Origin: Candidatus Poribacteria bacterium
GTDB lineage: Bacteria; Poribacteria; WGA-4E; WGA-3G
DNA: 64,000 bases
Direction of reading: 5' to 3'
NCBI GenBank assembly: GCA_965219695.1
Contig: CBDCOJ010000032.1
Span: 517,747 to 581,746 of the forward strand
The notes below the pieces were generated by a model. The model did not search any database. It was not told where the DNA came from and worked only from the letters and a program-made list of their open reading frames with translations. Shown piece by piece: positions 3,695 to 48,225 of this stretch. Made by a program: the position numbers and the translations under genes. Position 1 is the stretch's first letter, and every line of letters starts with the position of its first letter.

Positions 3695-5341
3695 ATGGCA
3701 AAAATAAAATTCGGAATCGGTAATATCTTCTGTCTCATAGCAGAAATAATGAAAAAAGGCATTGAAGCAGTCAAAAACCTCTTACCTCTATCACTAAGAT
3801 TAATAGGAGCAATCTTAATTATAATTCTTGGTATAACCGGATGTTCCGACAACCCTTATACAAGTTCAATGCTGCAACCCAGTGATGTAGATAAATATAT
3901 CTTTTCAAGTGGCGGCAGAATTTGCCTTACCAATGGGTTTGAGACAGCTTGCTTAACACTTGTACCGAAACGAAATAATCGCAATTTACCTGTAATCCAT
4001 TTTTATCCGTCAAGCATTGCCTATGTGTTTTATTATGAAGGTGTGCCTGTCGTACGTGCAGAAAGACCGATGGACACAACTGAAATAGTGGAACAGATAA
4101 CAGGCACAGGAACAGATACAGGAGGGGGAAATCAACCGCGCGATAGTGGCATTCGCGTGGTAGATATACCGCCTCCTGCAGATCCCCCACCTCCAGCGGA
4201 TCCGCCTCTACCTGAGACAGACGTTAGTCTTGATCCCGAAAAGACTGTTATTGACGTCAATCAAGATCCGCCTCTACCTGAGACAGACGTTAGTGGTCAG
4301 CAACCCGATAATACTGGTGGCAGTGGTCAACAACCTCGTGGCAATACTGGTGGCGGTACGAATCCGAACCCTAATTTTAATCCGTTGCCTATTCAACCGC
4401 CGACTGATCAACAACCCCCTGGCAGTCAGCAACCTCCTGGCGGTCAAACACCTGGCGACAACGGCGACGACGACAATAATGGCGGTCAAACACCTGGCGA
4501 CAACGGCGACGATGACAATAATGGCGGTCAAACACCTGGCGACGACGACAATAATAATGGCGGTCAAACACCTGGCGACAACGGCGACGACGACAATAAT
4601 AATGGCGGTCAAACACCTGGCGACAACGATAACAACGGTGATCAAACGCCTCCCGGTAATAACAATCCACCAGTCAATAACAATCCACCAGTCAATAACA
4701 ATCCACCAGTCAATAACAATCCACCAGTCAATAACAATCCACCAGTCAACACTCCGAACCCGAGTGGACACAACCCACCCGACAATGCTCTTTCACATTT
4801 AGTTTACGGGCACGCTGATGACGATCCTGCCCACCCTACACACGTAGATGGATGGATAGTGTGGATATACTACCCGCACAACTACGCTGAGCAAGGGCAT
4901 CCGCGTGGATTAGGCATTGAGCCGTTTAGTAAACAGACTGGTCCACGTTCAGTTGATGATCCCTTAACAGATTATAGAGATGATTACGGGTTTACATTGA
5001 GCGTAAGCGGTGGTGAGGTCACAGGATTTTCGCAAACTGAAGGAGACTGCATTGACGAACGTATCGGTCCTCCTACCTTTGAAATTGAAGACAACCGTGA
5101 GATGGGTCGAGACCAACGTGATGATATTGACGACACTCCATGCAGCGCAAGCGGGAACAACTATAGCGTTCAGCTCTTCATTAAAACGAATGCGGAAAAA
5201 ATAACGCTTACTATACAGTGGACTCACGGTATGTATGCTCCCCAGACTCAGAAATTCAACATAATGAAAGAAATTAGCATGAAAGATTGGGATGAGGCGG
5301 GGTACGACCCAGGTCATACTAACCAAGAAAGATGGGATTAG
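3695..5341 (+). CDS. paralog C of tandem lipoprotein family (~250 aa repeat-encoded linker)
   Basis: RBS gaggag then ATG 3695. Lipobox LGITGC-SD. N-domain about 80% identical to paralog B. The linker is built from 5 x GGQTPGDNGDDDNN and 5 x NNNPPV units. C-domain GWIVWIYYPHNY...ITLTIQW. Confidence 0.7.
   Translation: MAKIKFGIGNIFCLIAEIMKKGIEAVKNLLPLSLRLIGAILIIILGITGCSDNPYTSSMLQPSDVDKYIFSSGGRICLTNGFETACLTLVPKRNNRNLPVIHFYPSSIAYVFYYEGVPVVRAERPMDTTEIVEQITGTGTDTGGGNQPRDSGIRVVDIPPPADPPPPADPPLPETDVSLDPEKTVIDVNQDPPLPETDVSGQQPDNTGGSGQQPRGNTGGGTNPNPNFNPLPIQPPTDQQPPGSQQPPGGQTPGDNGDDDNNGGQTPGDNGDDDNNGGQTPGDDDNNNGGQTPGDNGDDDNNNGGQTPGDNDNNGDQTPPGNNNPPVNNNPPVNNNPPVNNNPPVNNNPPVNTPNPSGHNPPDNALSHLVYGHADDDPAHPTHVDGWIVWIYYPHNYAEQGHPRGLGIEPFSKQTGPRSVDDPLTDYRDDYGFTLSVSGGEVTGFSQTEGDCIDERIGPPTFEIEDNREMGRDQRDDIDDTPCSASGNNYSVQLFIKTNAEKITLTIQWTHGMYAPQTQKFNIMKEISMKDWDEAGYDPGHTNQERWD
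4439..4645 (+). repeat. in-frame 42-bp tandem repeat, ~5 copies (ggcggtcaaacacctggcgacaacggcgacgacgacaataat)
   Basis: Near-perfect head-to-tail copies are visible in the sequence. Copy lengths are 36/42/45 bp, all multiples of 3. Confidence 0.9.
4658..4747 (+). repeat. in-frame 18-bp tandem repeat x5 (aataacaatccaccagtc = NNNPPV)
   Basis: Five perfect consecutive copies are visible in the sequence. Confidence 0.9.
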
Positions 5342-16825: not shown

Positions 16826-19800
16826 ATGAATCCAAGAATTTTGGGCATTATTGGTGGTCTCGCCCTTATCGTTGCTCTACTCTCGCCTTTTATGATGGGA
16901 AGTTCTAAAAAGGTAGAGCGACTCTATTTATCTGCTAAAGGACTATATGAACAAGCAGATTATGAAGGGGCGATAGCCAAGTATACTGAGGCACTTGAAG
17001 AGTCGACAAAACGCGGTGTGAAAACCGAAGTGATTGACAAAGATTTTACGACGCTTGCTAATTTTCAAATTGCTGTTTCTTATTCTCGCCTTGCTGAGCA
17101 GACAGGTGATGTTAACCACTATGATACAGCGCTTGAGTATATTGAAAAAGTGGCTCCTAACGCTACTATAGCTAAACATCAAGAAGGGTTAACATACCTC
17201 TGGGGACATATTCTATATAGAACGGAACAGTATGAACTTGCTGAAGCAAAGTTCACACAGTTGATTGATAATTTCCCTAACAGTCTACAAGTAGAGAACG
17301 CGTGGTATGCTATCGGTCAATTGAACTATAAGTTAGGAAATTACGAGAGTTCTCGAACCGCTTTTAACAATATTCTTGTCGGTTTTCCTAACTCTGAATT
17401 CAAGGATGACGCGCAGCTTCTCATCGCTCAATCCTTCCTTGACGAAAGCAATTACGAACAAGCTTACCCGGAATTTGATAAATTTGCCACTGATGAGTTT
17501 AAGAATTTTCCAGAACTGCATGCCGAAGCGATGTATAAAGCCGCTTTCTGTTTGAATCAACTTAATAGAGACGATGAAGCGATCAGTCGTTATACAAACT
17601 TCATTACACAATTTCCAGAACATCAGCTTGTTACGGCGGCATATTTCGACCAAGGCCATATTTATGCTAAACAGAAAGACTATGACAATGCACGCGTTAA
17701 CTTTGAGTTAGCACTCCAAAATACAGCAGACCGTGGCCTCCAATCCGAAATTCAGTTTGCCATTGGGGAAACATACTTTGATCAAGCTGACTATGAAAAC
17801 GCGATTGTATCTTACACAAAACTGTTAGACGAATATCCAGAGAGTGCATTCATCGGTGATGCAAAACTCGGTGTAGCCGACAGTCAGTTCCGATTGGATC
17901 GTTGGAGTGATGCTATCACTTCATATCAATCGGTTATTGAACACGAAAAAAGTGAAATGCAATCCGAAGAAGGTTCTGAACTCAGTTTAACACCTTATTG
18001 CTCTTTACAAGTTGGCGAAGCATTTTACAAACTTGGAACTAATCAACGCGATGCTGGTCAGATGCAGGAAGCGGATGCAACGCTTGAACTCGCGTTAGAA
18101 TGGTACCTGAAAACCGTTGACGATTTTCCGGAAAACCCTGTTGTGCCGCATGCATTATATGGTGCAATCTGGACATTGAATGACTTGGGACGCAAGGAAG
18201 AATTGGAGAAAATTGCGAGCGAGTTTATTGAAAAAAATCGTAACGATAACGAGTTTGATATCCTTGCTGCAGAGGTACAACTCCGCTTTGCTGACATAAA
18301 ACGCACCGAATTTAAGCAATATGTTGAAGCCGCAGAAGAATACGCTCAATTGTGGGAATACCGTCCACTTCCCAAATTCCATCTTATCAAGTTAATGGGC
18401 AAATTCTTTGAAGGTCGTTCCTACTATGAAGCCGCAAAACCTGAAGGTTATCAAGAAGGCGATACTACCACAAATTTCAATGCGGAATATCTCCAAAAAT
18501 CTGTTGGGGCATACCAAGACGCTATCAACATGTTTTCTGATGAATCTTTTCGTCCTGGCATTGAAGAAGGACGCTACCAAGACTTCTCAGAACGTATTGC
18601 ACAGGTTGAAGCATGTCTCATGAACGAAGCACTCTCACACGAGATGCTCGGGGCATGGGATATAGCGCGACAACGCTACGCTATGATTCCTGAAGCCAGT
18701 AACTACTATGAACGTGCACTTTTGCTCACCGCAAACAGTTATGTAAGGCAGGGGGACAAATCCCAAGCTATCACTTATTACAATTCAATAATGTCAAAAC
18801 TTGCAGACAAAAACAATCTTTCATTGGCAGAGATTAAGCTTGCAGATCTGCTGCGTGCTGAAGAACGGTTTGAAGAAGCGGCAGCCGAATACCAAGATGT
18901 TGTTGATGGTAACCCAACAGGTGAATATGCAGATGATGCGTTGTACTTTGTAGGTCTTTGCTACTATCATGCTTCATCGGAGAAACCTGAGCTTATTGAA
19001 AAAGCTGCAGAGGCTTTCAATAAGGTTGTGATGGAATACGCGGATAGTCCAAACGCCATTGAAGCCTATTATGGCTTGGCACTTGTTTACCAAGATGCTG
19101 CTAAAAAACATGGTGATACGACGAAGTGGTCCCTTATCGTTCAGACGGCAGACGCAGCAACCGAAAAATTCGCTGACAGTAGTGAAGAGTTGGTTCTCCA
19201 AACACTCGGACAAATTGATCTCATCAAAGCAACAGCCCTTGAAAACATAAACGCTGATGATATTGAAGGTCTTGTCGCGAGTCTACAGCAAGTTGTTAAT
19301 AACTCTGGAGCACGCGAAGATGCTCGCATCCGATCACAGCTTAAGATTGGGCATACTTACTACAGTAAAGAGCGTTTTGAAGAAGCTCTCGCTGCGTATA
19401 AATTATTCGTCGAAAAATTTCCGAATAGCGAAATTGCACCAACTGCACAATTTCAATCTGCTGTCTGTTATTACCAGATAGCCCAGAAGGCTAAAGATGC
19501 CGATGCAGCACAACTCGCGTATACCAATGCTGCCAGTGAAGCAGAGAAGGTTACCGAAATGACGGATAACGTTGATAACCTCATTAGCGCAAATTATACG
19601 CTCGGTTTATCAAAATTTGGGCTAAAGGATACGCAAGGTGCAATTGATGCCTTCAAGCAGGTCACTTCCTTTGAAGGTCAAACCGAGGACGAAAATCGCA
19701 AAAATCTCATCTCTCAAGCACACTCGCGACTTGCTGAATTATTCAGCAATGTTGGCAATCATGAGGACGCTGTGAAAGAGTATCAGTACATTATCGCTAA

Positions 19801-21538
19801 TACCGAAGATGATGACTTGCGAGGACGTTCCTATTTTGCGATGGCTTATGCACAAGACGAACATCTTAAGATGTATGATGATGCATTGACAAACTATCAG
19901 AACGCTATTCAGTTAGCTGATAATCTGGTGAAGGCACAGTCCTATTATAGGACAGGTTTGATTTATCAAGAAAAACTCAACAATCTTGATAAAGCATTGG
20001 AAGTTTTCCAAAACTTGATTGCCAACTATAGTACGGAACAGAATACCGGTGTTGCTTCTATGGTTGCTGACGCGAGTCTACGGCGTTCTGAACTGTTTGT
20101 GAAATTGGGGCGCTTAGACGAGGCTATCGCTGATTCAATAAGTTCAGTAGAAGCACTTAAGACAAGCCCGACTGCAACTGTTGCGCAAAAAGTTGCTGCA
20201 TTATATACCCTCGGATTTCTCTATTCAGATAAAGCACGCACCCACTATCCTGAGGATCTGCCCCAAGGATTTGATCTTAAGCCCTATATTGAAACGAGTG
20301 GGTTAGCCGCTTCTTCTTTCTTTGAAGTTAGCAAACTTGCTGCGCCTGTAGAGAAGGCGGATAAACAAACGGTCATTCCGTATGTACAAAATTCGCTTTT
20401 CCAAGCCGGCCAGATATACTATTCACTGGGTGCTGGATTTAAGCGGCGCGCAGAGTTGTTACTCGCCATTGATCCGCTTACAGAGTTTGTTAAATATGCG
20501 GATGCAGGTATATTCGCTGCCTCAAAGGATCTACCAGGAGACGTGGAGACTTCATTAACCTATTTAGCCTCTGCTAACTTTGACTTGGGGCGGATGCAAG
20601 TTGGATTAGACGAAGAGATGTCTCCGCAAGCTGTTGCTTATTTCGACGCTTCTGTTAAGGTTTTCAACGATCTTGTCAAACGCTATCCAAATGCCAAAGA
20701 TGCAGCACTCTGGCAGTATCAAGCTGGCGAAGCTTACTATACAACAGAGCAGTTTGAAAAAGCTATTGTTGAATATGATAAGGTCAGACGGGTTAATAAG
20801 ACGCATGAAAAAGCTCCTGAATCCTTATACGCTATCGCTACTTGTTATCAATTTCTCTCTGAAACAGCGAAAGACGCAGGCAATACAGATGCTGAAAAAG
20901 CGTTTCTTGACAAACTATTTGAAACAAACGAGATACTTGTCAAGGAATATAACAATAGCAAGTTCGCTGGCGAGGCGTTTATCAACATTGGTAATAAGCA
21001 CTATAACGCCGCTTTGGATCCAGAACTTGAGGCAACTGAGCAAATCGATCTCTTCCGACAAGCGATTGAAAACTACAAGCGAGCACTTGCAGCGCCCGGT
21101 CTCAGTGCAGAGTCCAAAAACACTGCAGAGGGTTTCCTTAATGAGACCGAGAGTTTTCTTGCACATAATGAATATAAGTATGCTATCACATCACTTGGCA
21201 AGGCTCAAAGAGCATCTGAAAAGTCTGACATTGAAGAAGCAATTGATCTCTTCAAAGCCATCACGAAAGCTTATTCAGAAACCAAGTATGGCGATCTTTC
21301 TTACGGTAAGTTAGGAGAAGCATATACAATGCTCGCGAATAAAGAGGAAAGCTATTATCCGTATGCATTGTATTACTTCCAGTTCTTGCCTAAGAAATAT
21401 GCAAGAATAGAACCTGCTGACTCTCAGGTCCAGGATGCAATTAACTACTGTATTCTTAAGTCTAATGAGATTCAAGCTTACATGAAGTCTAAGAATATTG
21501 AGCCACTTCAGGGAGAACCTGAAGATGGTAACGAATAA
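16826..21538 (+). CDS. giant tetratricopeptide-repeat (TPR) protein with N-terminal membrane anchor
   Basis: 1570-aa protein. An N-terminal TM helix is followed by tens of 34-residue TPR-like units (recurring A..Y..A...F..FP.S). A terminator hairpin lies downstream. Confidence 0.8.
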   Translation: MNPRILGIIGGLALIVALLSPFMMGSSKKVERLYLSAKGLYEQADYEGAIAKYTEALEESTKRGVKTEVIDKDFTTLANFQIAVSYSRLAEQTGDVNHYDTALEYIEKVAPNATIAKHQEGLTYLWGHILYRTEQYELAEAKFTQLIDNFPNSLQVENAWYAIGQLNYKLGNYESSRTAFNNILVGFPNSEFKDDAQLLIAQSFLDESNYEQAYPEFDKFATDEFKNFPELHAEAMYKAAFCLNQLNRDDEAISRYTNFITQFPEHQLVTAAYFDQGHIYAKQKDYDNARVNFELALQNTADRGLQSEIQFAIGETYFDQADYENAIVSYTKLLDEYPESAFIGDAKLGVADSQFRLDRWSDAITSYQSVIEHEKSEMQSEEGSELSLTPYCSLQVGEAFYKLGTNQRDAGQMQEADATLELALEWYLKTVDDFPENPVVPHALYGAIWTLNDLGRKEELEKIASEFIEKNRNDNEFDILAAEVQLRFADIKRTEFKQYVEAAEEYAQLWEYRPLPKFHLIKLMGKFFEGRSYYEAAKPEGYQEGDTTTNFNAEYLQKSVGAYQDAINMFSDESFRPGIEEGRYQDFSERIAQVEACLMNEALSHEMLGAWDIARQRYAMIPEASNYYERALLLTANSYVRQGDKSQAITYYNSIMSKLADKNNLSLAEIKLADLLRAEERFEEAAAEYQDVVDGNPTGEYADDALYFVGLCYYHASSEKPELIEKAAEAFNKVVMEYADSPNAIEAYYGLALVYQDAAKKHGDTTKWSLIVQTADAATEKFADSSEELVLQTLGQIDLIKATALENINADDIEGLVASLQQVVNNSGAREDARIRSQLKIGHTYYSKERFEEALAAYKLFVEKFPNSEIAPTAQFQSAVCYYQIAQKAKDADAAQLAYTNAASEAEKVTEMTDNVDNLISANYTLGLSKFGLKDTQGAIDAFKQVTSFEGQTEDENRKNLISQAHSRLAELFSNVGNHEDAVKEYQYIIANTEDDDLRGRSYFAMAYAQDEHLKMYDDALTNYQNAIQLADNLVKAQSYYRTGLIYQEKLNNLDKALEVFQNLIANYSTEQNTGVASMVADASLRRSELFVKLGRLDEAIADSISSVEALKTSPTATVAQKVAALYTLGFLYSDKARTHYPEDLPQGFDLKPYIETSGLAASSFFEVSKLAAPVEKADKQTVIPYVQNSLFQAGQIYYSLGAGFKRRAELLLAIDPLTEFVKYADAGIFAASKDLPGDVETSLTYLASANFDLGRMQVGLDEEMSPQAVAYFDASVKVFNDLVKRYPNAKDAALWQYQAGEAYYTTEQFEKAIVEYDKVRRVNKTHEKAPESLYAIATCYQFLSETAKDAGNTDAEKAFLDKLFETNEILVKEYNNSKFAGEAFINIGNKHYNAALDPELEATEQIDLFRQAIENYKRALAAPGLSAESKNTAEGFLNETESFLAHNEYKYAITSLGKAQRASEKSDIEEAIDLFKAITKAYSETKYGDLSYGKLGEAYTMLANKEESYYPYALYYFQFLPKKYARIEPADSQVQDAINYCILKSNEIQAYMKSKNIEPLQGEPEDGNE

Positions 21539-40976: not shown

Positions 40977-41810
40977 ATGTTCTACCTAACACGGCAATCC
41001 GCCTTTGAGGCATCCCATTACAATCGGATTCCCGAATTGAGCGATGCCGAAAACTTTGAACTGTTCGGTGCCGCAGCAAATCCAAATAGCCACGGACACA
41101 ACTACGTGCTTGAAGTGATGGTCAAAGGGGATGTAGATGCCGATGATGGAATGGTCATCAATTTAACGACGTTAGATGCGTTGTTGAAAACAGAAGTGCT
41201 TTCGAATTATGATCATAAGCACCTGAACAAACAACATCCTGTGTTCAGCAAAAATCCACTACTACAACCGACATGTGAAAACATCACAATTGAAATATGG
41301 CGACGACTCGCTCCCTCTTTCCCCGATGGATTGCTCCATCGGGTTCGGCTCTATGAAAGTTCTACGCGATTTGCCGACTATTACGGAGATGATATCATGG
41401 TTTATCTTACTAAGGTTTATGAGTTCAGTGCAGCGCATCGTCTACACAGCCATGCACTTAGTGATGAAGAAAACCGAGACATCTTCGGGAAGTGCAATAA
41501 TCCTGCTGGGCATGGGCACAACTACGTAATTGAAGTCACTGTAAAAGGTGACGTAGATGCAAAAACTGGACTGGTCGCGGGTTTGAATCTGCTTGACGAA
41601 GTAGTCGAAAAACAGGTCTATGCACGCTTTGATTACAAACACCTCAATCTTGATACGCCGGAATTTGAGAAACTTAATCCGACATCTGAAAACTTTGTAA
41701 AGGTACTTTGGGATGTGTTGGAACCGAATTTACAACCGGTGGTTTTACACCGTCTCCGCTTGCGAGAAACACCCAAAAATCATTTTGATTACTATGGAGA
41801 ATCTTCTTAA
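40977..41810 (+). CDS. tandem two-domain 6-pyruvoyl-tetrahydropterin synthase (PTPS)
   Basis: Two PTPS folds. Domain 2 carries LSDEENRDIFGKCNNPAGHGHNYVIEVTV, nearly identical to the animal PTPS active-site segment, with the catalytic Cys present. Domain 1 has FGAAANPNSHGHNY, so the His triad is kept but the Cys is lost. Confidence 0.8.
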   Translation: MFYLTRQSAFEASHYNRIPELSDAENFELFGAAANPNSHGHNYVLEVMVKGDVDADDGMVINLTTLDALLKTEVLSNYDHKHLNKQHPVFSKNPLLQPTCENITIEIWRRLAPSFPDGLLHRVRLYESSTRFADYYGDDIMVYLTKVYEFSAAHRLHSHALSDEENRDIFGKCNNPAGHGHNYVIEVTVKGDVDAKTGLVAGLNLLDEVVEKQVYARFDYKHLNLDTPEFEKLNPTSENFVKVLWDVLEPNLQPVVLHRLRLRETPKNHFDYYGESS

Positions 41811-41813
41811 TTT

Positions 41814-42404
41814 ATGAATACTGAACAAGAAAGTGAAGCTGATCATAAGCCTGAATTGTTAGAGTCTCTTTTCGGACAGATTATTGAAAATATAGGTGAA
41901 GACCCGAACCGTCAAGGTTTGGTAAAAACACCACTCCGTGCTGCAAAAGCATTAGAATTTCTTACGAGCGGCTATCATCAGGATGTTAATAAGATATTAA
42001 ACGAAGCTATCTTTGACGAGAATTGTGACGACATGGTTATCGTCAAGGATATTGAATTTTTTAGTCTCTGTGAGCACCATATCCTCCCGTTTTGGGGAAA
42101 GTGTCATGTAGGCTATCTTCCACTGAATCGGGTTATTGGTCTTAGTAAGATTCCGAGAATTGTGGATATGTTCTCTCGACGCTTGCAGGTTCAAGAACGC
42201 TTAACACGCGAAATTGCCGAAGCATTGGAGGCAGCATTGAATCCAGGAGGCGTTGCAGTCGTAATGGAGGCACAACACATGTGCATGATGGCGCGTGGTG
42301 TAGAAAAGCAAGCCTCAAAGATGACAACAAACGCTATGCGGGGCGCATTTCGGGAAGATAGTTCTACGCGCGCTGAGTTTCTTAGATGCGTCCAAGTTTC
42401 TTAA
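41814..42404 (+). CDS. folE: GTP cyclohydrolase I
   Basis: 196-aa protein with the FolE core ([12 protein letters not shown], zinc-binding Cys/His) and QERLT. Confidence 0.9.
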
Positions 42405-42420
42405 AGGTAGTAGGTCACTC

Positions 42421-42458
42421 CGCCAAATGCTATAGGCGCATTTGGCGTTAATTTGGTG
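42421..42458. repeat. family B palindromic repeat copy (ccgccaaatgctataggcgcatttggcg)
   Basis: A near-identical copy of the element at 26067-26103, in the folE/SDR intergenic spacer. Confidence 0.8.
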
Positions 42459-42488
42459 TGCCGTCCACCCTTTCTCTGTAAAAAATAA

Positions 42489-43241
42489 ATGTCCACACAA
42501 AACAAGACTAACGAATTACAAACAAATAGTCTCAAAGGAAAAGTAGCGGTTGTCACTGGTGCGTCAAAAGGCATCGGCAAAGCAATAGCAGGTGCCTTAG
42601 CAGATGCCGGAGCAAAGGTAGTCCTCGCTGCCCGTACACCTAAGACCGTAGAGCAAGCCGCAAGCAATATTAGAGAGACAGGCGCGGATGCAATCGCAGT
42701 CCCGACTGATGTCACAGACGTTGACGCTGTGCAAAACCTCATCCAACGCACATTGGATACCTATCAAAACTTGGATATATTGATAAACAATGCAGGAAGC
42801 GGTAAATTTGGAACTGTTGCTGATTTTGATCCGTCAGATTGGGATAACGTCATCAATTCCAATTTGAAGGGTGTTTACCTCTGTGCAAAATATGCGCTTC
42901 CGCATCTATTGGCACAAGGTGGCGGACAAATTATTAACGTGCTTTCTATCGCAGCGAAGGTCGCTTTTCCCGCTTCAAGCGCATATTGTGCAGCAAAAGC
43001 AGGCGCGCTTGCTTTTACAAAGGTATTGGCTGCTGAAGTGCGGGACAAAAACATACGAGTGACAGCAGTGCTACCCGGTTCCGTTGAAACACCTTTTTGG
43101 GATGATATTCCACAACATCCCGATTTTGAAAAGATGCTCAAACCGGAGCACGTAGCAAACGCTGTTCTGTCCGTATGCCAGCAACCGACTGGCATGGTAA
43201 CCGAAGAAATCGTTGTTATGCCTCCGCTCGGTATTTTATAG
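42489..43241 (+). CDS. SDR-family reductase (sepiapterin-reductase-like by context)
   Basis: TGASKGIGKA motif and catalytic YCAAKAG. It lies immediately downstream of the PTPS and folE genes. Confidence 0.7.
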   Translation: MSTQNKTNELQTNSLKGKVAVVTGASKGIGKAIAGALADAGAKVVLAARTPKTVEQAASNIRETGADAIAVPTDVTDVDAVQNLIQRTLDTYQNLDILINNAGSGKFGTVADFDPSDWDNVINSNLKGVYLCAKYALPHLLAQGGGQIINVLSIAAKVAFPASSAYCAAKAGALAFTKVLAAEVRDKNIRVTAVLPGSVETPFWDDIPQHPDFEKMLKPEHVANAVLSVCQQPTGMVTEEIVVMPPLGIL

Positions 43242-43370: not shown

Positions 43371-45494
43371 ATGAAAAAGCTTAAATTTATATCAATATTA
43401 CTTTTTGCTCTATGTTTCATCAATAATAATAATGTTGCTCCAGAAGAGGAATGGATGCCAGACCCTCACTTACGGCAGGCTGTTCGTGAAGAACTCGAAA
43501 TCCCTGATGAGATACCTATACATCCCGGAGACATGCCAGGATTACATAATCTTTTCGTAATAGAAATAGAACACGATATTAGGAGTTTAAAAGGGCTTGA
43601 GTATGCGGTGAATCTTAAAGTCTTGGTTATCGACAGAAGTCAAGCCTCAGATTTAACGCCACTTGCGGGGCTTGAGAACTTAGTATCCTTGTCTGTTGTT
43701 AGAAGTGAAGTCTCAGATTTAACACCTCTGGCGGGGCTCAAGAATTTACGGGTCTTAAAGTTGGGTAAAAATCATCGCATTTCGGATATAACACCCCTCG
43801 CAGGACTGGTGAATTTAGAACGGTTGCACTTGAACGACAATAAGATTTCAGATCTCACACCCCTCACAGGACTGGTGAATTTAGAACGGTTGCACTTGAA
43901 CGACAATAAGATTTCAGATCTCACACCCCTCACAGGACTGGTGAATTTAAGATGGTTGCACTTGGAATACAATCAAATTTCAGACCTAACCCCGATAAGA
44001 AACCTAACCAAACTCGAGCAGTTGACAATAATAGGCAATCCTATTGACTATACAGAATTGGGAAATCTACCAGCAGAATTGCGCCAGTGCCTGGTGGATG
44101 CCTCCCCGTATAAAGCCCCCATTGCAGAACGCATCCAAAACAGAGTCTATCCTTCTATCGGGGTGAGAGACTACGTACTTGCGACGCGTGGTCAACGCAC
44201 TATGGAAATTTTCACGAGGTTTGACTTGGTTTTTGGAGCTCTCCCTTTTATTCCCCTTAGAGAATGGACAACAAGATGGCTAACAGCATGGGGATTTCCG
44301 CCTGTCGTCAAAAACTTATCCACACGTGTGGGACATATAGATGAAATGATAGAAATACACACCGAAGTCCTTCAACGAAATCCTAATATGATTTTGCTTA
44401 TAGGTCTGGATTTTCAGAATGGACTTTTTGAAAGGTATGGTGAAGATTGGGAGGGGTGGCTACGCGATAAAGAGGGAAATCGTCTAACATCCCGTTGGCG
44501 CACGTATACCGGGGAAGAAGACTGGGATAATCTTATCGACTTCACGAAGCCTGTCGTCATAGAACAAATTGTGCAACAGGCAAAATCGATTAGCGAGTGC
44601 GGACTCTATGATGGTATCTGGCTCGATCATTGGGGCGAAGGGAAAAGACTACAAGGAGTCTACACCGCAGAAGAAGAATATATTGCGAAGGACACAATCC
44701 TCCAACGCATCCGCGAAGTTGTTCCCGATGACTTTTTTATACTCGTTAACAACAACCGCCGTAAACTGCAGCCTCGCTGGGCACCCTATGTCAACGGTAT
44801 CTATATGGAATCAGGACGCGATTTTTTGGAGACTAGGCCGGATGGACCTGACGGCTATACCTTTGCTGGGATCCGTGACATAGAAGAGGCACTTTTGTGG
44901 AATGAAACGAAACTGAGGAAACCGACATTAAATCTTTTAGAGGGTGAAGTGTCATATACCAAAGCGATTGACGATCCCGAAGTAAAGCAAATCGTCAGGT
45001 TTTTCACGACAATGGCACTCACACATTCCAACGCATCGGTTTTTATGCTCCATTATGATGATTTTTACTGGTACCGCTTCTATGATGCCCCTTTGGGGCA
45101 ACCGATTGGTGGCGATGAAACTAAAGGCATTCTCTACGAAACCCCGAAAGGTGAGGCCATTGATGGAATGTTCATCCGGGAGTTCACCAACGGCTGGGCG
45201 GTGTATAATCGGAGTGGTGCAGCACAGGAGATAGAACTTCCGCAGGAGGTTTCCGGCTGGTCGAGCGGTGTGGAGCATCAACGCCGGCATACGTTGGCGG
45301 ATTTGGATGGCGAGATTTATTTAAAGGCTGAAACGGGGACATCTGCGGATGTCAATGGCGATGGCGTTGTGAATATCCAAGATTTGGTGATTGTTGCCAA
45401 TGCCTTTGGCGGAGCAGAACCTGATATCAATGGCGATGGCGTTGTTAATATTCAGGATTTAGTGATTGTCGCAAACGCCTTTGGAGAAAATTAA
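43371..45494 (+). CDS. secreted leucine-rich-repeat protein with central uncharacterised domain and C-terminal dockerin-like repeat pair
   Basis: Signal peptide, then about eight 22-aa LRRs (LxxLxxLxLxxNxIsDLTPLxGL, internalin-like). A roughly 400-aa central domain follows. The C-terminus has two DVNGDGVVNIQDLVIVANAFG segments, the dockerin type-I calcium-binding pattern. Confidence 0.75.
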   Translation: MKKLKFISILLFALCFINNNNVAPEEEWMPDPHLRQAVREELEIPDEIPIHPGDMPGLHNLFVIEIEHDIRSLKGLEYAVNLKVLVIDRSQASDLTPLAGLENLVSLSVVRSEVSDLTPLAGLKNLRVLKLGKNHRISDITPLAGLVNLERLHLNDNKISDLTPLTGLVNLERLHLNDNKISDLTPLTGLVNLRWLHLEYNQISDLTPIRNLTKLEQLTIIGNPIDYTELGNLPAELRQCLVDASPYKAPIAERIQNRVYPSIGVRDYVLATRGQRTMEIFTRFDLVFGALPFIPLREWTTRWLTAWGFPPVVKNLSTRVGHIDEMIEIHTEVLQRNPNMILLIGLDFQNGLFERYGEDWEGWLRDKEGNRLTSRWRTYTGEEDWDNLIDFTKPVVIEQIVQQAKSISECGLYDGIWLDHWGEGKRLQGVYTAEEEYIAKDTILQRIREVVPDDFFILVNNNRRKLQPRWAPYVNGIYMESGRDFLETRPDGPDGYTFAGIRDIEEALLWNETKLRKPTLNLLEGEVSYTKAIDDPEVKQIVRFFTTMALTHSNASVFMLHYDDFYWYRFYDAPLGQPIGGDETKGILYETPKGEAIDGMFIREFTNGWAVYNRSGAAQEIELPQEVSGWSSGVEHQRRHTLADLDGEIYLKAETGTSADVNGDGVVNIQDLVIVANAFGGAEPDINGDGVVNIQDLVIVANAFGEN
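43801..43932 (+). repeat. perfect 2 x 66-bp tandem repeat inside LRR gene (one LRR unit each, + diverged third copy)
   Basis: caggactggtgaatttagaacggttgcacttgaacgacaataagatttcagatctcacacccctca is repeated identically back-to-back. Confidence 0.9.
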
Positions 45495-45534: not shown

Positions 45535-48225
45535 TTAGGTATTGAATCTACCGAGCCGCCGCCGAATACGAATCTTCTTGATAGCCCGTGTATCGGCATC
45601 TAAAATAGTGATAACTGCATCGCCAAGTTCTAATTCTGTACCAGTTTCCGGAATTGTGCCGGTACGATCAAGAATATAACCAGCGATAGTCGTATAGTAA
45701 TCCCTTTGAGGAATTGACAGTCCATAGTGTTCTTCCAACATCTCGATCTCGGTCCTGCCTTCACATTCAAGAATCTCGGGGGCAATTAAATGGATGGAAT
45801 CAGGGTCGTCACGTTCATCATCAAATTCGCCAACGATTTCTTCAATAAGGTCTTCAACAGTCACAAGACCGACAATGCCACTGTATTCATCAACAGCAAA
45901 TACCATCGTATGCTGTGTATTTTGAATTTCTTTCAAGAGAGCGTTAATATTTTTTGATTCAGGGACAACATGTATATCTGTACGGATAAACGGTTCGACC
46001 GTTTCAGGTCGGTTTTCAGCATAAATAACATCTAAAAGGTTAACAATTCCAACAATGTCGTAAATACGTTCATCGTATACAGGAATTCGCGAGTAGCCAG
46101 AATCTGCGGCAATTTGTAAAAAATCCTCACATGTTGTATTTTTTTCTATGGCGACGATATCAACGAGTGGCATCATGACTTGTCTAACAGTACGGTTTTG
46201 GAAGTTAAGTAGACGGTGAATCATTTGTCGTTGTTCTGTCAGCAGGTTGCCCGATCTTTCACCCATAGTTGCGAGTAATCGTAATTCTTCACGTTGGGCA
46301 TCAGGACTGGGGGTGTTTGCACCTCTATCTATGATTCTGACGAGTATTTTTGTAACAGATTGCACAAAGTAAATTAGGGGGGCTAATACATATTCAGAAA
46401 ATCGTAAAGGATAGGCATAGCGTAGTGAAAGCGCATCTGCTTTAACACGGAAAATCGTTTTCGGCAAAATTTCTCCGAAAATAAGTAGCAAAATGGTTAC
46501 GTAAACGATAGAGATAATCCCTTGCAACTCATCTGAAACGGACAGTACTGTTTCAGTCAATCGATCACCGAATTGTGAAATTAGTACATTTGCGAGATTC
46601 GTTCCTACCAAGGTCAGCGCAAGCATCTTATCGGGAGATTCTACTAAACGGTGGATAATTTTTGCCTTTGAGTCGTTGGATTCAACAAGTTGGTTCATTC
46701 GGATTTTATTTACTGAAACGAGGGCAGTTTCTGAACCGGAGTAAAAAGCGGACAACACAAGGCATACAAGGACCGCAAATGCAAACAAGGATATGAGTAT
46801 AGCAGTCTGTGTTGCTCCGCCAGCACCGATTAAAAAGAGGGATAATAAAAGTATTTTCAAGGGAACAGCAGCACCAACTATATTCCCATTGCCAGGTTCT
46901 TCGGGTATGGGAACTCGGATAAATAGGCTTGTGATTAGGTTGCCTTCTGTGGCGGTAATTTCAAATTCTATGCCGTTTTCGTCAACGTGAGTTTCACCAA
47001 CAGAAGGAATATGTCCAAAAAGTCCGAGCGCGTAACCACCAATTGTATCTGCATCATCTTCTTGAATTTTAAGTTCAAATTGTTGGTTGAGTTCGCGAAT
47101 GCTCATGCGTCCGGTTGTTTCTATCACCAATGGATCCTCTGAATGTTTTATATACTTAGGAGCAGAATCGTCTTTATCATGTTCATCAGCGATGTCTCCC
47201 ACTACCTGCTCAACAATGTCTTCAGTCGTAACGATTCCAGAAATACCACCATATTCATCACGGAGGATCGCTATTTTGGTTTGCTCGCGTTGCAGTTGCA
47301 GCAGCAATATTCCGATTTTTCGAGTTTCAAGGACTAAAAAAGGTTCTCGGATTAGTGGCGCGTCAGGGGGAGCATTTGTAATTTTCGCCCGTTCTTCAAG
47401 AAATTCATCTATTGTAAGCGAATTTACCTCCGCACGGCGCCACTGTGGAAAATCTTTAACATAGAAAATACCACAGATTTTATCAATCTGTTCACGATAA
47501 ACCGGAATGCGTGAAAACCCATATTCTTTTGCTTGTGTCAAGGTGTCTTGGATAGTGTTTGATGTTGGCACAGCGACAACTTCAGTTCTGGGAACCATAA
47601 TTTCTTTCGCTTCAATCTCTCGCAATTGAAGGATATTACTTACGATTTCGCGTTCATCGGGGGGGAGTGTTTCCTCGTGATAGGTCTTAAAGAATTCTTG
47701 TAAATCTGTCGTAGTGAATTCTTCTTCAGATGGTGGATGTCCACCAAATATTGGGATAAGTTTGTCAATGATTTTTCGCAGTAGTGCGCGTAGAGGGGAA
47801 ATGAAAATAGAAAATATCCACAAAGGTGGTGCGGTTATTTTGGCAAAGGACTCCGCATGCTTGATTGCGTAGGTTTTCGGTGTCATTTCACCGAATATCA
47901 GCATGAGAAGCACGCTAAGTGCTGTTGCAATAACAAACTGGGTAGCGTCAGATGATTGTGGGAGGGCTCTTTTCTCCACAAGTCCCAACATGACAATCGC
48001 GAACGTAACATTAACCAGGTTGTTTCCAAGAAGGACGGTAATAAATAAACGACGTGGATTGTCAACAAAATTGACAATTGCAGACGTTTTTCCCCGTTTA
48101 AGACGGATCTTTTCAATTTGCACTCGCGTTAGAGCGCATAAAGCCGTCTCAGACCCGGAAAAAAAGCCGGAAAGGATAAGTAAACCTACCAATCCAATCA
48201 AATAAGGCAGTAGTGGAACTTCCAT
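45535..48225 (-). CDS. fused tandem CNNM/CorC-HlyC family protein (2 x [DUF21-CBS pair-CorC_HlyC])
   Basis: 896-aa protein. Two complete modules each begin with the DUF21 signature (FFSGSETAL / FYSGSETAL). Each is followed by CBS pairs and a transporter-associated C-terminal domain. Confidence 0.8.
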   Translation of the reverse strand: MEVPLLPYLIGLVGLLILSGFFSGSETALCALTRVQIEKIRLKRGKTSAIVNFVDNPRRLFITVLLGNNLVNVTFAIVMLGLVEKRALPQSSDATQFVIATALSVLLMLIFGEMTPKTYAIKHAESFAKITAPPLWIFSIFISPLRALLRKIIDKLIPIFGGHPPSEEEFTTTDLQEFFKTYHEETLPPDEREIVSNILQLREIEAKEIMVPRTEVVAVPTSNTIQDTLTQAKEYGFSRIPVYREQIDKICGIFYVKDFPQWRRAEVNSLTIDEFLEERAKITNAPPDAPLIREPFLVLETRKIGILLLQLQREQTKIAILRDEYGGISGIVTTEDIVEQVVGDIADEHDKDDSAPKYIKHSEDPLVIETTGRMSIRELNQQFELKIQEDDADTIGGYALGLFGHIPSVGETHVDENGIEFEITATEGNLITSLFIRVPIPEEPGNGNIVGAAVPLKILLLSLFLIGAGGATQTAILISLFAFAVLVCLVLSAFYSGSETALVSVNKIRMNQLVESNDSKAKIIHRLVESPDKMLALTLVGTNLANVLISQFGDRLTETVLSVSDELQGIISIVYVTILLLIFGEILPKTIFRVKADALSLRYAYPLRFSEYVLAPLIYFVQSVTKILVRIIDRGANTPSPDAQREELRLLATMGERSGNLLTEQRQMIHRLLNFQNRTVRQVMMPLVDIVAIEKNTTCEDFLQIAADSGYSRIPVYDERIYDIVGIVNLLDVIYAENRPETVEPFIRTDIHVVPESKNINALLKEIQNTQHTMVFAVDEYSGIVGLVTVEDLIEEIVGEFDDERDDPDSIHLIAPEILECEGRTEIEMLEEHYGLSIPQRDYYTTIAGYILDRTGTIPETGTELELGDAVITILDADTRAIKKIRIRRRLGRFNT

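Follow-up and report, generated by a model that had tools for sequence, protein, structure and literature searches.

The closest described relatives of the enzyme considered here are the endo-α-1,3-L-fucanases of glycoside hydrolase family 168 (GH168), such as Fun168A, Fun168D and Fun168E of Wenyingzhuangia fucanilytica and PbFucA and Rho5174 of Planctomycetota. These enzymes combine a catalytic barrel with a small β-sandwich subdomain and place their catalytic pair on strands β4 and β6 (D184/E254 in PbFucA, D206/E264 in Fun168A and D172/E243 in WfGH168_II) (PMC11685898, PMC12534559). The gene under study lies in a 64,000-nucleotide stretch of contig CBDCOJ010000032.1 from a Candidatus Poribacteria bacterium (hereafter the window) and encodes a protein with a predicted barrel and β-sandwich of this kind, which are preceded by an arm of leucine-rich repeats (LRRs) and followed by a C-terminal dockerin. 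It shares with GH168 the Asp on β4, the Glu on β6 and the equivalent of residue N218, but the characterised GH168 enzymes are single-domain proteins of ∼370–400 residues lacking the LRR arm and dockerin. Moreover, among the genomes scanned, the family of the window protein is found only in Poribacteria-labelled ones and one Chloroflexi-labelled bin.

The docking end of the protein is comparable to two systems. As in clostridial cellulosomes, the enzyme bears a duplicated F-hand dockerin with internal two-fold symmetry, the poribacterial cohesins match the cellulosomal ScaB and SdbA, and a second type of dockerin sits on the cohesin protein. Unlike cellulosomal scaffoldins, the poribacterial proteins contain one cohesin each rather than arrays, and their candidate anchor is a type A C-terminal domain (CTD) of type IX secretion systems (T9SS) instead of an S-layer homology domain or sortase signal. 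The cargo comprises LRR-GH168-like enzymes, GHL10/DUF6259 barrels and WD40 propellers rather than carbohydrate-active enzymes directed at plant cell walls, and the host is a Gram-negative sponge symbiont. An in silico system reported for 'Ca. Stygibacter' (Cloacimonadota) pairs dockerin-tagged secreted enzymes with a cohesin protein ending in a T9SS-type CTD (PMC8542988), and is thus likewise a computational pairing in a candidate phylum. It differs in having one 3,755-residue scaffoldin with tandem cohesins and carbohydrate-binding modules and few dockerin-bearing enzymes (GH18, GH57 and peptidases), whereas Poribacteria have many single-cohesin proteins and one massively expanded LRR enzyme family. 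A literature search combining Poribacteria or sponge symbionts with dockerin or cohesin returned nothing relevant; the barrel family and its cohesin partners appear undescribed, as does cellulosome-like docking in Poribacteria.

Two further comparisons concern the LRR arm. EndoS of Streptococcus pyogenes, also a secreted glycosidase fused to LRRs, is a precedent for LRRs helping an endoglycosidase to engage its glycoprotein substrate. The EndoS GH18 domain is unrelated to the window barrel, its LRRs follow the catalytic domain and it has no dockerin. The Listeria internalins InlA, InlB and InlH have the same 22-residue LRR type and a helical N-terminal cap, but the window protein has no LPXTG or GW anchor and carries a catalytic-type barrel and a dockerin.

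The reading that we favour, with moderate confidence, is that the protein is a Sec-exported modular enzyme composed of an LRR arm, a barrel belonging to a sister group of GH168 and a dockerin that docks onto surface cohesin proteins. After export by Sec, the LRR solenoid would likely serve as a targeting or binding arm for a proteinaceous or glycoconjugate target. Hydrolysis by the barrel would follow a retaining mechanism with the Asp/Glu pair and act on an α-linked glycan that may be rich in fucose or sulfated. Through its dockerin the enzyme would attach to a PSCyt1-LRR-cohesin-dockerin protein with one cohesin and a T9SS type A tail, itself associated with the surface or the outer membrane. 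Many interchangeable enzymes would be displayed on the cell surface in this way.

The central barrel and its relation to GH168

The first-pass annotation had suggested that the central domain could be hydrolase-like and had quoted two motifs from it, GIWLDHWGEG and YVNGIYMESG, without assigning a family. Both motifs are present, and the domain can now be placed among the GH168/GHL15-like TIM barrels. An AlphaFold2 (AF2) model of residues 236–657, built from a family alignment, shows a (β/α)8 barrel followed by a β-sandwich, with a predicted local distance difference test score (pLDDT) of 87.8 and a predicted template modelling (TM) score of 0.90. In a Foldseek search of this model against the PDB, the top 17 matches were all GH168 endo-α-1,3-fucanases (E 1e-12 to 1e-9, TM-score 0.46–0.64, identity 10–16%), including Rho5174 (9F9V), PbFucA (8RG3 and 8RG5), Fun168D (9JOC), Fun168A (8YA6) and a Muricauda enzyme (9NHF). 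A phmmer search of the whole protein against the PDB returned LRR matches only and none to the central domain; detection of its relatives by sequence required a trimmed family profile, which identified PbFucA (E 2.4e-6) and 9NHF (2.8e-4) from sequence alone. Comparison of the family with a 28-sequence PbFucA-like GH168 profile in hhalign gave a probability of 95.7% (E 8.4e-9) over 231 columns. The Pfam family GHL15 (PF14885) is carried by all close PbFucA relatives and is matched above its cut-off by some paralogues of the window protein (e.g. 35.6 bits in related locus L058).

The two quoted motifs contain the residues D419 and E480, which align to the catalytic pairs of PbFucA, Fun168A and WfGH168_II and are predicted to act as nucleophile and general acid/base, respectively. 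Both are invariant in two family alignments of 85 and 83 sequences, and among the dockerin-bearing members Asp is found at 419 in 60 of 62 and Glu at 480 in 61 of 62. The equivalent of GH168 N218 is N460, a position occupied by Asn in 108 of 130 family open reading frames (ORFs). The barrel is therefore most likely a retaining endo-glycosidase that uses this Asp/Glu pair.

Several observations weigh against a close assignment to GH168. The window protein itself scores only 24.5 bits (3e-5) with GHL15, below the 27-bit cut-off, the GH168 profile leaves the first third of the barrel unaligned, and the substrate residues that define GH168 are not conserved in the family. GH168 enzymes have a strictly conserved 'polar knuckle' Lys with an adjacent Glu (K66 and E65 in WfGH168_II numbering; PMC12534559), a Glu-Lys pair that all sequences of the GH168 alignment possess (E60-K61) and that belongs to the unaligned N-terminal third. 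In sequence profiles of the window family no counterpart of this pair was found, with no invariant Lys or Glu-Lys after β2; D285 stands instead at the start of the strand. The Tyr99 and Asn101 that bind the 2-O-sulfate at subsite −1 are likewise not conserved, as the GH168 FYWN motif falls on Leu/Gly or gaps.

These differences bear on the possibility that the protein is a bona fide GH168 endo-α-1,3-fucanase acting on 2-O-sulfated fucans, among them fucoidan and echinoderm fucan, with the LRRs and dockerin as accessories. Its best structural and sequence relatives are indeed GH168 enzymes that share the barrel and β-sandwich layout and the catalytic pair, N460 is present, and sulfatase genes lie near family members in eight loci. 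Nevertheless, the low identity, the missing Glu-Lys and FYWN counterparts, the sub-threshold GHL15 score and the divergence among paralogue barrels make this assignment unlikely. Within the GHL15 superfamily, the domain would instead stand beside GH168 as its sister group. Because the sulfate-binding and 'polar knuckle' residues are absent, its substrate should not be the 2-O-sulfated α-1,3-fucan of GH168. The substrate is probably a complex host or algal glycan, possibly fucose-rich or sulfated, and the mutual identity of only 37% among paralogue barrels suggests many specificities.

The recurrent neighbours of the family (inactive M16 peptidases, sulfatases, xylose-isomerase-like barrels, TonB receptors and TnpB) give only weak hints about the substrate. 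Proteins with inactive Peptidase_M16 domains near the family arrays number 28 ORFs in 23 loci (L014:7181-8488 type), and one of them, in L001, is fused to an extracytoplasmic function (ECF) sigma factor. The sulfatases (PF00884 plus SGSH_C; L075:7204-8616 type) are those of the eight loci mentioned above, and IS605 OrfB/TnpB-like genes occur in four (L060:21-1073 type).

A distinct class of barrel proteins is fused to sigma factors. In the related loci, 22 of the 130 full-length barrel ORFs consist of an ECF sigma factor, one transmembrane helix, LRRs and the barrel, with no dockerin (L018:2722-5181, L001:5156-7675, L030:2297-5008, L009:2780-5239 and 18 more). The sigma domain matches TIGR02937 at 102.8 bits. 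Both catalytic residues are kept in only 2 of these 22 fusions, compared with 104 of the 108 other members; Asp419 is replaced by Gly or Asn, and Glu480 by Ala, Asn, Lys or Gln. The fusions often head a three-gene cluster, in which the sigma-LRR-barrel gene is followed by genes for an LRR-barrel-YWTD-CTD protein and a PSCyt1-LRR-cohesin-dockerin-CTD protein. They resemble sigma factors tethered to the membrane, with a pseudo-glycosidase serving as the sensor.

The catalytically dead barrels of the fusions indicate that the fold can be used for binding only, and Poribacteria abound in LRR_4 and WD40 proteins, for which a part in host interaction has been proposed (PMC3909097). Both facts would suit a non-catalytic 'eukaryote-like' LRR adhesin or effector acting on the sponge host, for example in evasion of phagocytosis, with the barrel as a lectin. 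The near-complete retention of D419 and E480 in dockerin-bearing members, and their loss specifically in the sigma fusions, argues that catalysis has been selected for in the dockerin class and renders a purely adhesive role quite improbable.

The dockerin cassette and the cohesin proteins of related genomes

The C-terminal repeat pair had been identified in the first-pass annotation as a dockerin, with generic EF-hands as the alternative, and the profile scores favour the dockerin. Residues 659–703 match Dockerin_1 (PF00404) at 35.5 bits against a gathering threshold of 22.9, EF-hand_1 stays below its cut-off at 19.8 versus 25.4 bits, and a local hidden Markov model (HMM) of the family dockerin matches the C-terminus at 4.8e-27. 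Both Ca2+-binding loops conform fully to D-x-N-x-D-G-x-x-N-x-x-D (D660–D671 and D685–D696), each is followed by LVIVANAFG, and helices are predicted at residues 669–679 and 694–705 (AF2). The two DNA segments (45348–45409 and 45423–45484) are 87% identical and their products nearly so. Internal symmetry of this sort accompanies dual-mode binding in classical type I dockerins. The four-residue linker between the segments is shorter than in classical dockerins.

Together with the preceding β-sandwich, the dockerin forms a conserved cassette that has 272 blastn matches of 80–86% identity in 75 related loci, termed L001 and so forth. Across 102 paralogues the median identity rises from 37% in the barrel to 72% in the β-sandwich and 79% in the dockerin, and the cassette shows a nonsynonymous divergence (dN) of ∼0.1 at a synonymous divergence (dS) of 0.7–1.0. 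Recent gene conversion alone was considered as the reason for this conservation and rejected, since these values indicate old purifying selection with occasional exchange. The docking end is thus subject to strong purifying selection and passes between copies by exchange, which fits a single shared partner.

The enzyme-type dockerin is not restricted to the LRR-barrel proteins. It also occurs on WD40 β-propellers, one of which has two dockerins, and on GHL10/GHL6/DUF6259-like TIM barrels (L062:414-2417, L053:886-4707, L008:7363-9291 and L033:7431-9326), and therefore tags several protein classes in Poribacteria. Conversely, some barrel proteins have a YWTD propeller and a T9SS CTD in place of the dockerin, and others end directly after the β-sandwich.

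A candidate partner for the dockerin is encoded in related genomes. The 75 loci contain 154 ORFs with the barrel, 148 with a dockerin and 102 with both. A recurrent neighbour of the paralogues is a protein of ∼930–1430 residues with PSCyt1 (haem c), LRR, cohesin, dockerin and FlgD_ig/Por_Secre_tail domains (L018:8575-12708, L049:7322-11608, L021:461-3256 and ∼21 more). In L049, L018 and L021 the cohesin domain (PF00963) scores 39–47 bits against a cut-off of 24.1, and a poribacterial cohesin profile matches solved cohesins (ScaB 3L8Q, 2.4e-14; SdbA, 4.5e-6; others, ∼1e-6). The tail of the cohesin proteins matches TIGR04183, the model for T9SS type A sorting domains, at 38.3 bits (cut-off 23). 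In total, 24–25 cohesin-bearing ORFs are found in ∼20 Poribacteria genomes, and in the single-amplified genome (SAG) WGA-3G a cohesin protein, L021, occurs together with L003, a relative of the window gene at 91%. Candidate cohesin-bearing partners, as predicted earlier, thus exist in the lineage.

Two types of dockerin can be distinguished. The enzyme type repeats DVNGDGVVNI[QL]DLVIVANAFG twice with a linker of three or four residues, whereas the dockerin borne by the cohesin proteins consists of DVNRDGQVSILDMVLVARHLG, a nine-residue linker and DLNGDGIVNILDLILVSQNMG. This division between enzyme-borne and scaffold-borne dockerins is reminiscent of the type I/type II split of cellulosomes. The scaffold-type dockerin starts only ∼5 residues past the cohesin of the same protein; a cohesin followed by its own dockerin could permit chaining or self-binding.

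Docking onto cohesins has several points against it. Pfam scans of the 30 other ORFs of the window and a six-frame search with the poribacterial cohesin HMM found no cohesin in the 64 kb, the part of this genome that the search covered. All 24–25 cohesin ORFs carry a single cohesin, with none bearing several, and dockerins exceed cohesins by about six to one in the sampled loci (148 versus ∼24). The dockerin itself has a pLDDT of just 50–64 in the full-length AF2 model. The anchoring step is also doubtful, because Kamke et al. (2014, PMC3909097) reported TIGR04183 tails in poribacterial SAGs but no genes for the structural components of Por/T9SS secretion. Outside cellulosomes, dockerin-like modules that lack a cohesin partner are reported to be widespread (Peer et al. 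2009, cited in PMC8542988).

It may accordingly be asked whether the module binds any cohesin at all, or serves instead as a tail stabilised by Ca2+, as a tag for export or retention or as a binder of some other surface component, with the enzyme set free into the sponge mesohyl. The window without a cohesin, the six-to-one excess and the partnerless non-cellulosomal dockerins would agree with this, and so would those orthologues in which a YWTD propeller with T9SS-type CTD, or nothing, replaces the dockerin, as expected of an interchangeable localisation module. However, these genomes do encode genuine cohesins, in genes immediately next to those of the family, the dockerin of the enzyme type is conserved over hundreds of paralogues (79% identity, dN ∼0.03–0.1) as it would be for one shared partner, and the scaffold-borne dockerins form a separate sequence type, as in cellulosomes. 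A dockerin that binds no cohesin is therefore rather doubtful, and docking onto a surface cohesin protein is retained as the favoured function.

A broader picture can be proposed only tentatively and is possible rather than probable. Poribacteria may operate a cohesin-dockerin display system, in which hundreds of dockerin-tagged LRR glycosidases of a new GH168-like family, together with WD40 and other cargo, sit on single-cohesin proteins of the outer surface bearing a T9SS-type sorting domain, and serve to recognise and cut sponge-host or algal glycoconjugates. Their expression would be under membrane-tethered ECF sigma factors that sense outside the cytoplasm through the catalytically dead LRR-barrel. 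The window gene would then be one cargo enzyme whose LRR and docking modules are being reshuffled.

Poribacterial LRR, WD40 and 'Por-tail' proteins have so far been listed as 'eukaryote-like' factors with no mechanism given (PMC3909097). The present data tie a large share of the LRR proteins to a conserved barrel, a dockerin and nearby cohesin proteins. They also provide candidates for a new glycoside hydrolase family, for a cohesin-dockerin pair of a Gram-negative candidate phylum and for a sigma-factor sensor derived from a pseudo-enzyme. If the enzymes act on sulfated or fucosylated glycans of the sponge matrix or of algae, they would bear on carbon turnover in the sponge holobiont and on enzyme discovery for recalcitrant marine polysaccharides.

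The LRR array, mosaic descent and spread of the family

The LRR region had been called internalin-like, with 22-residue repeats, and this applies to the repeat type. The whole protein matches InlA in the PDB at 1e-84 (phmmer), LRR_4 at 8.6e-26 and LRR_EndoS at 2.1e-7 in Pfam. Membership of the class 1 internalins was rejected, since the models NF033188 and NF033189, with cut-offs of 1050 and 1600 bits, score 107 and 101; the similarity is confined to the type of repeat. The N-terminal cap (residues ∼24–56) has the consensus EDWMPDPxLR. The solenoid (residues 57–235) is made of seven full units of 22–23 residues and a C-terminal capping unit, with AF2 strands at residues 60–63, 84–90, 106–112, 128–132, 151–155, 173–177, 195–199 and 217–221 (pLDDT 90–97).

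Within the solenoid, the ORF contains the exact duplication reported in the first-pass annotation: nucleotides 43801–43866 equal 43867–43932 with 0/66 mismatches and the frame is intact. In LRR register the identical units are units 5 and 6 (43815–43880 and 43881–43946), each encoding LERLHLNDNKISDLTPLTGLVN. Tandem Repeats Finder places them in an array at 43779–43984 with period 66, 3.1 copies and a score of 328. The second-longest exact run of period 66 in the window is 30 nt, so that the tract is far beyond chance, and the neighbouring LRR units differ from the duplicated unit at 23 and 27 of 66 nt.

Comparison with relatives qualifies the earlier proposal of a very recent expansion of the array. 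One LRR unit fewer, exactly at the duplication site, is found in relatives of ∼80% identity (L003, the syntenic L004, L005 and P0002–P0009), whereas L001, L002 and P0012 have the same number of units as the window gene. The paired units have diverged by 6/66 nt in L001 and 3/66 nt in L002, which indicates that the array length is not new to the window genome; what is recent is the perfect identity. It is better read as recent gene conversion, or as loss and re-duplication, than as a first-time expansion, and the adjacent units would owe their identity to gene conversion or unequal recombination, as is usual in the dynamics of LRR arrays. Taken by itself, the 132-bp repeat is thus a routine polymorphism of the LRRs in an ordinary member of a large family.

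The gene as a whole has a composite ancestry. Its first ∼90 nt are ∼50% identical to L001/L002 and 78% to L004 (87% over the first 190 nt, blastn). The barrel (44181–44900), by contrast, is 96–100% identical to L001/L002 versus 86–97% per 90-nt bin to L004 (92% over 44076–45125, blastn). The identity profile falls at ∼45081–45170, and the last 54 nt (45441–45494) again show 69–76% identity to L001/L002 and 94% to L004. When the gene is compared with its closest relative, L001b, dS rises from 0.08 for the barrel and 0.17 for the LRRs to 0.74 for the cassette, and the cassette is about equally distant (∼85%) from the 272 cassettes in all loci. On these comparisons the gene is a mosaic, with a cassette as divergent from the closest relative as from paralogues, which points to recombination where conserved modules join, or possibly to a chimeric assembly. 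L001 and L002 (89–92%) were rejected as simple orthologues: they are flanked by arrays of paralogues and not by the housekeeping genes of the window, and they diverge in the regions of the signal peptide and the C-terminus. Family members exchange their signal peptides and C-terminal cassettes and vary in LRR number through the same kind of exchange.

An assembly artefact in a multi-copy metagenomic family, affecting either the perfect 132-bp repeat or the whole mosaic gene, must be weighed here, as hundreds of similar copies with 80–86% identical cassettes invite chimeric joins. It is very improbable in view of the intact frame and the exact tract of only 149 bp. The independent assemblies L001 and L002 agree with the window in the number and position of the units, which there differ by 6 and 3 nt, and both flanks of the gene are collinear with L004 for ∼10 kb, the first and last ∼60–190 nt of the gene itself being L004-like.

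The family is large. Searches yielded more than 4,500 homologues of the window protein, the named ones all from Candidatus Poribacteria, and a search of representatives clustered at 50% identity gave 891 clusters at E ≤1e-3 and 343 at E ≤1e-30. No database record identical in sequence to the window protein was found. A pattern scan for the barrel over 185,579 species-representative genomes confirmed 523 copies, often in tandem arrays; close relatives of the window gene form arrays of two to four paralogues. All but one of 74 retrieved loci are labelled Poribacteria. The exception, L066 (VXPS01000334.1), is on a contig binned as 'Chloroflexi bacterium SB0662_bin_61', which is probably mis-binned because the family is otherwise Poribacteria-only. 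The isolate names of several family records (e.g. IRC4, RHO and WGA-3G) suggest marine-sponge origin. Among uncultivated symbionts of sponges, Poribacteria rank with the most abundant, in agreement with the host-associated lifestyle anticipated from the LRR protein.

The gene and its surroundings in the window

The features of the gene are listed in Table 1. The N-terminus reads as a probable Sec signal peptide, with an uncertain cleavage site, in which MKKLK is followed by a hydrophobic core of 12 residues; the full-length AF2 model has a helix of low pLDDT at residues 2–17. A lipoprotein N-terminus was rejected, as the Leu at −1 of Cys15 leaves no lipobox. Signal peptides vary between relatives, and the mature start EDWMPDP is shared.

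Table 1. Predicted features of the LRR-barrel-dockerin gene, in window coordinates.
Feature	Positions	Strand	Basis
Whole coding sequence, 707 residues and TAA stop	43371..45494	+	ORF call, no interruption
Probable Sec signal peptide (MKKLK + FISILLFALCFI + NNNNVA)	43371..43439	+	Read from sequence
LRR N-terminal cap (EEWMPDPHLRQAVREEL...)	43440..43538	+	W28, P30, D31, L34 invariant in 83 sequences; helix 32–42 pLDDT >90
LRR solenoid, eight β-strands ∼22 residues apart	43539..44075	+	Pfam LRR_4 8.6e-26, LRR_8, AF2
Perfect period-66 tract, ∼2.26 units	43801..43949	+	Exact identity across 83 positions
(β/α)8 barrel, GHL15/GH168-like catalytic domain (predicted)	44118..45125	+	AF2, Foldseek, profiles
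Asp419 codon (WLDHW), predicted catalytic nucleophile	44625..44627	+	Aligns to PbFucA D184 (chain D165)
Glu480 codon (YMES), predicted general acid/base	44808..44810	+	Aligns to PbFucA E254 (chain E235)
C-terminal β-sandwich subdomain (FIREFTNGWAVYNRSG...DLDGEIYLK)	45126..45326	+	AF2 strands, pLDDT >90 (domain model)
Dockerin, two F-hand Ca2+-binding segments (DVNGDGVVNIQDLVIVANAFG x2), 4-residue linker	45345..45485	+	Pfam Dockerin_1, local HMM
Conserved cassette (β-sandwich + dockerin), descent decoupled from barrel	45126..45491	+	blastn, dS, identity profile

In the window the gene stands alone among housekeeping genes, and its dockerin is the only one that the local HMM detected in the 64 kb. 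A scan of the flanks for promoters and terminators gave no signal above shuffled expectation. The window is collinear with L004 (OZ244563.1) for ∼10 kb at ∼87% nucleotide identity, which marks it as part of a poribacterial chromosome. Directly upstream, at 40977–43241 (+), lie genes for a 6-pyruvoyl-tetrahydropterin synthase (PTPS) with two PTPS domains in tandem within 277 residues, GTP cyclohydrolase I (FolE) and an SDR protein. This set, also present in L004, looks like a compact pterin biosynthesis cluster of the tetrahydrobiopterin or queuosine type. Downstream, at 45535–48225 (−), an 896-residue ORF contains two complete CNNM-CBS-CorC/HlyC modules in tandem and is a putative, internally duplicated Mg/Co-efflux-type transporter.

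Three further loci in the window stand out. A 548-residue ORF at 3695–5341 (+), which has no Pfam match, combines an N-terminal hydrophobic anchor with a low-complexity Pro/Asn/Asp/Gly region; its exact repeats comprise an 18-bp unit in 5.1 copies at 4658–4749 (NNNPPV) and 42/78-bp units at 4438–4635 (GGQTPGDNGDDDNN). At 16826–21538 (+) a protein of 1570 residues is rich in tetratricopeptide repeats (TPRs), with YfiO/BamD-like and Slam-like TPR matches; large repeat proteins of this kind have been noted as abundant in Poribacteria (PMC3909097). At 32149–35225 (−) a 535-residue fusion of a response regulator and PglZ overlaps a 494-residue HATPase_c protein, the two forming an unusual two-component pair.

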